From IMG/VR virus record IMGVR_UViG_2693429584_000015: a stretch of 4,474 nt of DNA; one strand, written 5' to 3'. Position numbers and translations under genes: made by a program. The first letter of the stretch is position 1, and each line of letters begins with the position of its first letter. This document shows positions 2,884-4,071 of this stretch, piece by piece. The notes under the pieces were generated by a model. It did not search any database. It saw only the letters and a program-made list of their open reading frames with translations, and was not told the DNA's origin. Source of the stretch: a virus (Duplodnaviria > Heunggongvirae > Uroviricota > Caudoviricetes).

Positions 2884-3028
2884 TCCTGAGTTTGGTTTTC
2901 GTAGCGATTGCATTTTTCTTATCTGCTTGCCGTTGTAGGTAGCGTGTATTTGCATGTTGTTTTGTAGTTAACCTTATGATTGGCTGAATTTTGTTCATCA
3001 ATAAAAAATATCCCTCTCTGATCTTTAA

Positions 3029-3054
3029 GGTTCGCTTTGGCGGACCTTTTTTTT
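3029..3054 (+). terminator. Rho-independent terminator (end of the TA transcript, candidate)
   Basis: Stem ggttcgc (3029-3035) / gcggacc (3040-3046) with one G-U wobble, loop tttg, then an 8-T run (3047-3054). Confidence 0.6.
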
Positions 3055-3190
3055 ATTTCCGCGCCACGCCCGGCGTACATCAAAAACCACAGAGCCTTTC
3101 AGGGGTGAGCTTACGGGATGGTCAGTGTGACTTTCTCTGTGGGCTGGTCACCCCCGGGCGCAGGCTCACCCACTAAAAGGAAAAGTCACG

Positions 3191-3622
3191 ATGTTTGGTA
3201 TTTTCAAAAAGAAAACCCGCAGAGCAGCAACTGAAATTAAAAAGTTTGAGAAACGCGATCTGGCACAGGCGGTTATTAATGCTGCCTACCTGGTGGCCTA
3301 TGCAGATGGTGAATGTGAGACTTCAGAGAAAGCGAAGATCGAACAGGTATTACGTAACCAGCCAGCATTGTCCGCATTTACGTCAGAAATTAATGCCATC
3401 AGTGCCACGATCACAGGTCAGCTTGACACCAATTTTAAAATTGGTCGTCGTGCAGCGTTGCGTGAAATTGAAGATGTGAAACACGATACGCGTGAAGCGG
3501 AAGATGTGCTGGATGTGGCGGTGGCCATTGCTGAAGCAGATGGTGAAATTGAGCCGGAAGAGCGTAAGGTTCTGGAAGAGATTGCTGGTGTTCTTGGCCT
3601 GCGACTGGAGAACCACCTGTGA
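3191..3622 (+). CDS. TerB-like (tellurite-resistance TerB domain family) protein
   Basis: 143-aa ORF; ATG 3191 with SD AGGA 9 nt upstream. Two helical repeats each carrying the 'A.ADG' signature (AAYLVAYADGECETSEKAKIEQVL and VAVAIAEADGEIEPEERKVLEEIAGVLGL) typical of TerB-domain proteins. Assigned by motif pattern, not by search. Confidence 0.7.
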   Translation: MFGIFKKKTRRAATEIKKFEKRDLAQAVINAAYLVAYADGECETSEKAKIEQVLRNQPALSAFTSEINAISATITGQLDTNFKIGRRAALREIEDVKHDTREAEDVLDVAVAIAEADGEIEPEERKVLEEIAGVLGLRLENHL

Positions 3623-3786
3623 CGGTAAAACTGCGTCTGGCCGCTGTGGCACTCCTGCTGTTTCTGGTGGTGATGGTGGATTTCACCAGCAGGATCATGT
3701 CGGTGCTGGCGGATGGAGTGCTGGTGGTCGGTATTGTGGTATTGCTGTGGCCGGTGATAAAAAGAAACAGCCTGCATAATGCTTGA
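3619..3786 (+). CDS. Small hydrophobic protein (55 aa, two predicted TM helices), translationally coupled to the TerB-like gene
   Basis: Absent from the supplied ORF track (under its size cut-off); found by manual translation. GTG 3619 overlaps the TerB TGA stop (3620-3622) in a GTGA arrangement, with GGAG (3607-3610) 8 nt upstream. Translation VTVKLRLAAVALLLFLVVMVDFTSRIMSVLADGVLVVGIVVLLWPVIKRNSLHNA has two hydrophobic segments and a basic C-terminus. CTG/GTG-rich codon use matches neighbouring genes. An internal ATG 3673 start would remove the first helix. Confidence 0.45.
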   Translation: MTVKLRLAAVALLLFLVVMVDFTSRIMSVLADGVLVVGIVVLLWPVIKRNSLHNA

Positions 3787-3951
3787 TTTTTTTGTTTACT
3801 GTTTATTAAAAATACTACTGCATGGTGAATCCCCCTGTGCGGAGGGGCAATCAGCAACCAGGTATATGTGATAATCGCGGATTCAGGTGCTGATACTGAA
3901 TTCACCGGGAGGCACCCGGCACCATGCAAGAAAAAGAATGTGCATGCAAAC

Positions 3952-3978
3952 ATGCCCCTCTCCGGAGGGGCATTTTTT
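3952..3978 (+). terminator. Rho-independent terminator (strong)
   Basis: Perfect 7-bp GC-rich stem gcccctc (3954-3960) / gaggggc (3965-3971), extendable by 2 bp, loop tccg, then a 6-T run (3973-3978). Confidence 0.65.
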
Positions 3979-3983
3979 ATGGG

Positions 3984-4010
3984 TAAAAAATGCCCGAATG
4001 GGTTCGGGCA
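3984..4010 (-). terminator. Rho-independent terminator on the minus strand (convergent with the 3952-3978 terminator)
   Basis: Perfect 8-bp stem tgcccgaa (3991-3998) / ttcgggca (4003-4010), 4-nt loop. The A6 run at 3985-3990 becomes a U-tract only for a minus-strand transcript. No minus-strand gene to the right is visible in the window. Confidence 0.45.
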
Positions 4011-4071
4011 ATAGCATGAGATACTGATATTGTTGTGTTGTTATCGTGTGGATTTTAACCAGGGTTTATCA

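Follow-up and report, generated by a model that had tools for sequence, protein, structure and literature searches.

The tciA–tciB gene pair of enterobacterial phages, its exchangeable membrane partner and a putative regulatory leader RNA

The stretch of DNA described here (the window) comprises 4,474 nucleotides (nt) of a Caudoviricetes virus (IMG/VR record IMGVR_UViG_2693429584_000015), and carries at positions 3191–3786 two overlapping genes that represent tciA–tciB, an accessory operon which both temperate and lytic phages of enterobacteria carry and whose name and annotation, but not its function, are established. An earlier note, made from the sequence of this DNA, had not recognized the pair as a described system. 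That view could not be upheld, since the two genes are already present as tciA and tciB of P1, as PHROG families 632 and 1470, and as Pfam families, and are labeled by the Prokaryotic Genome Annotation Pipeline (PGAP). What is new lies around the pair: a membrane partner that is interchangeable, a distribution that extends to lytic phages, a position in the stx slot and, above all, an unreported pseudoknotted leader upstream of tciA.

The gene pair and its exchangeable partner

The pair consists of the following elements:
3191–3622, + strand: tciA, ATG start, 143 amino acids (aa), TerB-family protein with no hydrophobic segment
3607–3610, + strand: Shine-Dalgarno-like GGAG for tciB, read from the sequence, within the last codons of tciA and 8 nt 5′ of the GTG
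3619–3786, + strand: tciB, GTG start, 55 aa, small membrane protein of family DUF3927

The TGA stop codon of tciA (3620–3622) and the GTG start codon of tciB (3619–3621) overlap as GTGA, an arrangement that implies coupled translation. The overlap and the well-spaced GGAG in front of it had been placed correctly in the earlier note, which called the product of the first open reading frame (ORF) TerB-like and took the two genes for a module; searches with both proteins and the co-occurrence of the genes with a conserved overlap across genomes, presented below, bear this out. TciA matches Pfam TerB (PF05099) with 60.9 bits (cut-off 24.4, E = 1.8e-16, residues 26–138), and TciB matches DUF3927 (PF13064) with 59.3 bits (cut-off 25, E = 3.7e-16). 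In turn, TciA belongs to PHROG 632 ('tellurite resistance', E = 1.7e-69), and TciB to PHROG 1470 ('TciB-like inhibition of cell division or resistance to colicin', E = 3.3e-28, residues 1–54).

TciA is a soluble, acidic, all-helical cytoplasmic protein with a TerB fold. The structure of Klebsiella TerB (2JXU) aligns with it over the full length (E = 9.1e-8, residues 14–137), and its AlphaFold2 (AF2) model is all-helical, with seven helices, at a predicted local distance difference test score (pLDDT) of 87.9. A Foldseek search with this model gave no match at E < 0.001; the top match was 2H5N (PG1108, deposited as a protein of unknown function; probability 1.00, template modeling score 0.55, E = 1.3e-2), and the tellurite-resistance protein 2OU3 (COG3793) was matched with a probability of 0.89. 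Residues Ala38, Asp39, and Gly40, as well as Asp117 and Gly118, are invariant or nearly so in two alignments; they belong to paired acidic A-D-G-E motifs, which are putative cation-binding sites.

TciB is a 55-aa hydrophobic inner-membrane protein. Its grand average of hydropathy (GRAVY) is 1.46, and its hydrophobic stretches, at approximately residues 7–20 and 26–47, are separated by the segment DFTSR (Asp21–Arg25). Hydropathy and charge, with positive charges at both ends, would suggest a two-helix hairpin, whereas the AF2 model of the monomer shows a single unbroken helix (residues 2–54, pLDDT 91.6) with no hairpin. Thus, the two hydrophobic helices described in the earlier note are present as hydrophobic stretches, but appear in the modeled monomer as one continuous helix. 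Similarly, its basic tail exists, but is made up of Lys48 and Arg49 only, in the most variable part of the family. The 53-residue helix exceeds one membrane span and is at odds with the hairpin expected from hydropathy; an arrangement as an oligomer, or one partly at the membrane interface, may account for it. Residues Asp21, Phe22, Asp32, Gly33, Pro45, and Lys48 are invariant from P1 to the lambdoid and Klebsiella versions. DUF3927 is a small family: in a set of 1.84 billion representatives, it makes up 57 clusters at 50% identity. Three long proteins considered as TerB–DUF3927 fusions, and hence as evidence of contact (P0131, P0179, and P0240), proved to be frameshift or gene-call chimeras. 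Some E. coli alleles of tciB (P0003, P0043, P0058, and P0083) read on into a 30-codon ORF inside the small RNA (sRNA) STnc100, yielding products of 81–84 aa. The ORF at 3779–3871 (+ strand) matches no PHROG family and thus differs from TciC, which corresponds to phrog_23152.

Across 13 diverse loci, the median dN/dS is 0.22 for tciA and 0.36 for tciB, with synonymous change in tciB near saturation. Because of this ratio and of the invariant residues listed above, sequence comparison identifies tciB as a real gene under purifying selection; the same is true of tciA.

All 596 bases of the pair are 100% identical to those of the lambdoid phage PPyecE_EH1910, where the products are annotated as 'TciA/TerB-like protein' and 'hypothetical protein'. 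The corresponding RefSeq/PGAP labels are 'tellurite resistance TerB family protein' and 'DUF3927 family protein'. In the GenBank records of P1, D6, and JLK-2012, the genes go by the names tciA and tciB, and P1 has an additional 35-aa tciC; the P1 name, taken here from these records and from later papers (PMC10695390, PMC9603915), is homology-based. At a threshold of at least 80% coverage, tciA is present in 803 of 5,426 complete E. coli genomes at 3,099 places (median two and maximum eight per genome), and tciB in 760 of them at 3,035 places (median four and maximum eight). About 15% of complete E. coli genomes carry tciAB, with copy numbers peaking in O157:H7 and other Shiga toxin-producing (STEC) and enteropathogenic (EPEC) strains. 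In a CRISPR interference (CRISPRi) screen of P1, tciA, tciB, and tciC were non-essential, and knock-down of tciA had no phenotype (PMC10695390). According to a survey of P1-like elements, whether the operon acts in phage inhibition 'remains unclear'; the survey found it lost in roughly half of one P1 subgroup (PMC9603915).

The pairing of the two genes was followed from both sides. In loci gathered by DNA searches and anchored on DUF3927, a TerB gene lies directly upstream in 91 of 93, the exceptions being phage 2B8 and one E. albertii contig. The set anchored on TciA (80 viral contigs, 56–100% identical to P1 TciA), together with other loci, provides 93 distinct pairs. The tciA stop codon and the start codon of the partner overlap by 1, 4, or 8 nt in 88 of these; four have a spacing of 0 to +4 nt, and in a single pair the genes are far apart (+64 nt). 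The start codon of the partner differs by lineage and may be ATG, GTG, or TTG.

The identity of the partner varies as well. It is of the DUF3927 type in 67 of the 93 pairs, including a diverged high-GC form that retains the pattern D..S.R...S..D, and in 22 pairs it is a 67-aa protein of phrog_27356 that is unrelated to DUF3927; the partners in the remaining four are other or degenerate. The 67-aa protein, for which a Pfam search gave no family, has one N-terminal hydrophobic helix followed by a conserved domain, C.[WY]YG[YF]QT[DE]R...VGCMV...W.PR.E.R. TciA proteins accompanied by different partner types can share up to 85–86% identity, and pairs of neither type were seen to be followed by a second partner gene. 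The rule is thus a TerB-like protein with a translationally coupled small membrane protein of exchangeable identity. In phage 2B8 (L004, 1690–2650), tciB occurs with no tciA, 85 nt downstream of a gene for a 238-aa multi-pass membrane protein; its first ten residues are replaced and it starts with TTG.

Several further features accompany these genes. The N terminus of the 2B8-type TciB (MFYKLCLL...) recurs in E. coli proteins P0106 and P0120. The 67-aa partner, with its 4-nt overlap and two-cysteine C-terminal domain, is found at ~1935–2150 in the higher-GC contigs L134, L141, L145, L152, L164, L167, and L176. In several higher-GC contigs, with either partner type, a CsrA-like gene (MLILTRR.GE...) lies just 3′ of the pair:
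L134, 2191–2508: CsrA-like gene
L141, 2184–2495: CsrA-like gene
L145, 2216–2416: CsrA-like gene
L153, 2161–2343: CsrA-like gene
In 17 of the 102 copies of tciA in viral contigs (L182, L185, L191, and others), the reading frame is either cut after ~8 codons (MFGIFGKKSPQSGNGN) or shifted (MVFLVKK...). These changes fall at an A-rich run near the start of the gene (3191–3225 in the window and the homologous copies), and could be true frameshift variation or sequencing error.

The leader RNA upstream of tciA

The region between the preceding terminator and tciA is predicted to fold into a structured leader with the following elements:
3027–3056, + strand: intrinsic terminator found by a terminator scan (hairpin 3027–3048 and T-run), closing the upstream toxin–antitoxin unit and abutting the leader
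3056–3190, + strand: structured 5′ leader of tciA, filling the 135 nt from the terminator to the ATG
3061–3065 with 3072–3076, + strand: P0, the 5′ hairpin
3067–3071 with 3156–3160, + strand: pseudoknot of the P0 loop with a downstream strand
3087–3094 with 3135–3142, + strand: P2
3115–3123 with 3146–3154, + strand: P3
3103–3110 with 3164–3171, + strand: P4
3095–3099 with 3176–3180, + strand: P5, anti-Shine-Dalgarno CCUUU with Shine-Dalgarno AAAGG

Helices P3 and P4 together form a long hairpin that crosses P2, creating a second pseudoknot. The structure rests on covariation, because thermodynamic folding of the leader sequence of the window alone is not significant (z = −1.66) and the nested consensus produced by RNAalifold misses the pseudoknots. 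In a MAFFT alignment of 25 distinct leaders, 93.6% of the cells pair, compared to 37–50% when the partners are slid, and the covariation score is 0.196 versus 0.112 in shuffles, with none of 500 shuffles reaching the observed value; since the sequences are related, these figures reflect a modest number of independent covariation events. For a covariance model, only the nested helices were used. In the alignment of 68 distinct leaders made with it, which is biased towards the model's own helices, 95.8% of the cells are paired, compared to 37–49% with the partners slid, and compensatory changes are found in 25 of 40 pairs, compared to 9.2 ± 1.7 in shuffles, of which none in 500 had as many. Helix P2 and the pseudoknot, which were left out of the model, covary as well; for the latter, five matched variants are present (CGCCC/GGGCG, CGCUC/GAGCG, GGCUC/GAGCC, CGCAC/GUGCG, and CUCAC/GUGAG). 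Helix P5 is invariant, so that its support is conservation and not covariation. The G-U pairs fix the strand of the leader as that of the mRNA. In the window, the model matches positions 3056–3193 with 151 bits.

The leader is kept together with tciA in all lambdoid versions, and its core is kept in jumbo phages; all 102 matches to the leader pattern in viral contigs precede tciA. The covariance model did not find it upstream of tciA in P1, D6, the Klebsiella phage-plasmids, or the high-GC versions. In turn, a diverged copy (51 bits, E = 8e-11) is present in the phage of the window itself, in front of an antirepressor gene located between the endolysin and Rz genes, and further diverged copies precede another antirepressor-like gene, a KilA-N gene, and a gene of unknown function. 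Each copy examined follows a terminator consisting of a hairpin and a T-run, and ends at the ATG of the downstream gene. The diverged copies are located as follows:
L001, 10291–10429: diverged leader copy
L096, 3780–3917: diverged leader copy
L005, 4571–4689: diverged leader copy

Neither copy in this phage has a match in Rfam 15 (E up to 1 in the window and up to 5 in the phage locus), and a literature search found no paper describing the leader. The Pas sRNAs, considered as its possible identity, were rejected: PasA and PasC adjoin the holin gene, and PasD resembles STnc100.

The conserved, covarying structure upstream of a gene suggests that the leader is a cis-regulatory structured RNA of a riboswitch-like kind. 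We read the leaders as a putative family of elements that would sequester the Shine-Dalgarno sequence of accessory genes in late operons; such an element could be a riboswitch, or a translational switch responding to a protein or to temperature.

Genomic setting, expression, and possible roles

Upstream of the terminator and downstream of tciB, the window contains the following features:
32–430: DUF1133/Q-type antiterminator, C-terminal part
672–869: 65-aa winged-helix-like ORF (phrog_331)
1020–2081: N6/N4 DNA methyltransferase
2188–2883: ParE/RelE-like toxin followed by helix-turn-helix (HTH) antitoxin, toxin first
3794–3984, + strand: STnc100 sRNA (Rfam RF02076, 144.7 bits, gathering score 47), starting 8 nt after the tciB stop codon
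3952–3980, + strand: terminator of STnc100, found by the terminator scan
3985–4046, − strand: anti-sRNA AgvB (Rfam, 96.5 bits), convergent to STnc100

The gene order in PPyecE_EH1910 is Q antiterminator, small ORF, DNA methylase, ParE/RelE-like toxin, HTH regulator, the pair, nanS-p, holin, endolysin, antirepressor, and Rz, with only the sRNAs and the nanS-p esterase gene between the pair and the holin gene. Here tciAB is therefore accessory cargo of a prophage, lying in the interval from Q to the lysis genes, in agreement with the earlier description of a cargo slot beside a toxin–antitoxin module and a methyltransferase. The pair occupies the same interval in lambdoid prophages of Escherichia, Klebsiella, Pantoea, and Franconibacter. 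It is also found in P1/D6 phage-plasmids, where it lies beside tRNA genes, in Klebsiella phage-plasmids, and in lytic jumbo phages of Erwinia and Salmonella (~240 kb), where it immediately follows tRNA-Cys. The presence of the pair in strictly lytic phages indicates that its function is not confined to lysogenic conversion. Three unrelated phage types have the pair adjoining tRNA genes, namely P1 (L002), D6 (L003), and the jumbo phages (L093 and L298–L303); the equivalent slot in Stx phages carries tRNA genes too. STnc100 follows tciB in the window, and in Stx2 phages it is located 75 nt after stx2B (PMC12370729), so that tciAB occupies the slot of stx2.

A consensus scan from the terminator to the ATG of tciA found no sigma-70-like promoter. 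Because the unit is thus preceded by a terminator with no promoter-like site between them, its expression is probably late in lytic growth and dependent on Q, rather than in the lysogen. STnc100 probably represents the 3′ end of the tciAB transcription unit, and may be the 3′ untranslated region of the tciAB transcript.

The reading that we favor, although we would put it at somewhat below an even chance, is that TciA is expressed late, gated by the leader, and held or partnered at the inner membrane by the small membrane protein, conditioning or protecting the membrane of the infected cell. The unit would be transcribed mainly during lytic growth by Q-modified, terminator-resistant polymerase, and the leader, by pairing with the Shine-Dalgarno sequence of tciA, would gate its translation. 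TciB, or elsewhere an unrelated small membrane protein, would position TciA, or act as its partner, on the cytoplasmic side of the inner membrane, and the complex would protect or condition that membrane. We can speculate that its roles might include exclusion of superinfecting phage or of colicin-type insults, or ion and membrane homeostasis until lysis; tciAB would be dispensable for plaque formation. The membrane partnership is proposed because of the TerB–TerC complex and of the membrane-anchored TerB-domain proteins DjlA and YebE; a TerC–TerB complex has been reported, and phage resistance in Klebsiella requires terC (PMC11003894, PMC12054061).

Several observations weigh against this reading. 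The unbroken AF2 helix of TciB does not support a hairpin, the 67-aa partner has almost no cytoplasmic residues, and the ease with which partners are exchanged argues against a tight, co-evolved interface between TciA and its partner. No genuine TerB–DUF3927 fusion was found among the long DUF3927 members. The promoter scan was a simple consensus scan, which a weak or non-sigma-70 promoter could escape, and STnc100 is abundant in uninduced cultures (PMC5331693), which implies some transcription of the region in lysogens. Additionally, a search of the literature on DUF3927, tciA/tciB, and TerB in defense or exclusion found no functional study of tciAB.

Among the alternatives, the pair might act as a toxin–antitoxin or abortive-infection system, in which TciB would be a depolarizing or holin-like toxin, and TciA would either restrain it or sense infection and release it. 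TciB is small and very hydrophobic, and similar in size to holins and type I toxins, the order of the two genes and their coupled translation recall antitoxin–toxin operons, the unit lies in a cargo region with a toxin–antitoxin pair and a methyltransferase, and ter operons have historically been tied to phage inhibition (PMC9603915, PMC12054061). A toxin held by a TerB-like protein is nevertheless made unlikely by the copies in strictly lytic jumbo phages, by the tciB of phage 2B8 standing alone behind an unrelated gene, by the substitution of a differently shaped partner with TciA almost unchanged, and by the probably late transcription. The P1 knock-down data cited above (PMC10695390) do not fit it either. 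In PADLOC-DB 2.0, which includes Shango, TciB has no match and TciA has a single sub-threshold one (candidate PDC-S48, E = 0.0028, 14.8 bits), and searches of Pfam and PHROG placed neither protein in a holin family. It was also considered that the pair times lysis by modulating holin triggering or membrane energization. A small, probably late-expressed membrane protein would suit such a role, and the pair lies immediately 5′ of the holin–endolysin genes in the late operons of CharmingMan, Klebsiella phage 5, and an 'Actinobacillus' phage, and close to the holin gene in the phage of the window. However, in P1, D6, and the jumbo phages it is found among tRNA genes, distant from the lysis genes, it is both non-essential in P1 (PMC10695390) and lost from much of one P1 subgroup (PMC9603915), and the interval between Q and holin is a generic moron insertion site that is also used by stx2. 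We therefore give this explanation little credence.

A ter-like role in metal, oxyanion, or ion homeostasis would have TciA bind a cation and the pair change how well tellurite, Zn, Mn, or related stress is tolerated. The TerB membership and conserved acidic motifs of TciA, the conserved Asp21 and Asp32 of TciB, the induction of ter genes by Zn, Mn, and Te (PMC12054061), and a structured leader that could act as an ion-sensing switch are all compatible with it. Yet no TerC, TerD, TerZ, or other ter genes are found nearby, the minimal tellurite unit has been reported as TerC–TerD and not TerB (PMC12054061), the leader also precedes antirepressor genes that have no link to metals, and the known metal riboswitch families gave no match to it; such a role appears quite improbable. 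Least credible, to the point of being nearly negligible, is the proposal that the small ORF is a chance or untranslated frame and that the TerB gene alone is functional. The GTG start, the mere 55 codons, the variable C-terminal tail, and the alleles that read into the next region would be expected for such a frame, but Pfam and PHROG membership, a dN/dS of 0.36 at saturated synonymous change, residues invariant across the P1, lambdoid, and Klebsiella versions, and a start/stop overlap that is conserved although start codons differ between lineages are not.

Two broader proposals are somewhat more doubtful than the reading that we favor. In the first, tciAB would be controlled by an RNA class for which we found no earlier description, arranged as a cassette of terminator, leader, and gene, with two pseudoknots and a sequestered Shine-Dalgarno sequence. 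In the second, a TerB-like protein with a swappable, coupled mini membrane protein would be a general membrane module of the lytic phase in phages.

As a gene pair, tciAB is nothing unusual, with an existing name and annotation and multiple copies in many pathogenic E. coli. Its significance lies in its use of the late-operon slot of the Shiga toxin genes, in its presence in about 15% of complete E. coli genomes, and in the comparative rules of obligatory coupling, swappable membrane partner, presence in lytic phages, and probable late expression. If the leader is a true switch, it would provide lambdoid phages with a way to hold accessory late genes translationally silent until needed, and the genes so held would include antirepressors able to induce other prophages.

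Comparison with known systems

The closest relative of the pair is the tciA–tciB–tciC operon of P1, also present in D6, P7, and JLK-2012. TciA and TciB of the window are 52% and 48% identical to the P1 proteins, respectively, and the gene order, the PHROG families, and the stop/start overlap (TAATG in P1 and D6, GTGA here) are the same. In contrast to P1, tciC is absent in the window, where the region downstream of tciB is STnc100, and tciAB is located in a lambdoid late operon, whereas the P1 copy lies next to tRNA genes and ban. The structured leader, as judged by the covariance model, is likewise absent from P1 and D6.

The likeness to the terZABCDEF operon consists of the TerB fold, with the full-length alignment to 2JXU, and of a TerB gene followed by the gene of a membrane protein in both. 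However, TciB, with its 55 residues, has no similarity to the multi-pass TerC of ~350 aa, DUF3927 being the sole family found for it, and no terC, terD-family, TerZ, TerA, TerE, or TerF genes were found in the window or across 12.6 kb of the phage identical to it. Placing a TerB-like domain at the inner membrane, as proposed for TciA, has parallels in the N-terminal region of DjlA and in YebE/DUF533, and TciA matches both weakly (DUF533, E = 1.6e-5; DjlA, E = 6.4e-7, below the cut-off). In DjlA and YebE the membrane helix is fused to the domain, whereas here the membrane protein is encoded by a separate, coupled gene, and there is no J domain.

The SngA protein of the Shango anti-phage system carries a TerB domain; the helicase/ATPase partner genes of Shango are absent here, and the PADLOC Shango models gave no match. 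Superinfection-exclusion proteins (HK97 gp15), holins, and type I toxins (TisB/Hok) resemble TciB in size, hydrophobicity, and 'moron' position in prophages. Unlike them, TciB has the conserved Asp21 and Asp32 and an obligatory TerB partner; it matches none of their families, and the phage has its own annotated holin gene downstream.

The leader, in turn, is a structured RNA in a prophage, as are the phage RNAs of Rfam (STnc100, AgvB/AsxR, c4, sar, and the lambda thermometer) and, in kind, riboswitches. Its fold differs from these in having two pseudoknots and matches none of the families. With RNA thermometers and translational riboswitches it would share the mode of action, namely that of a cis-acting leader that sequesters the Shine-Dalgarno sequence.

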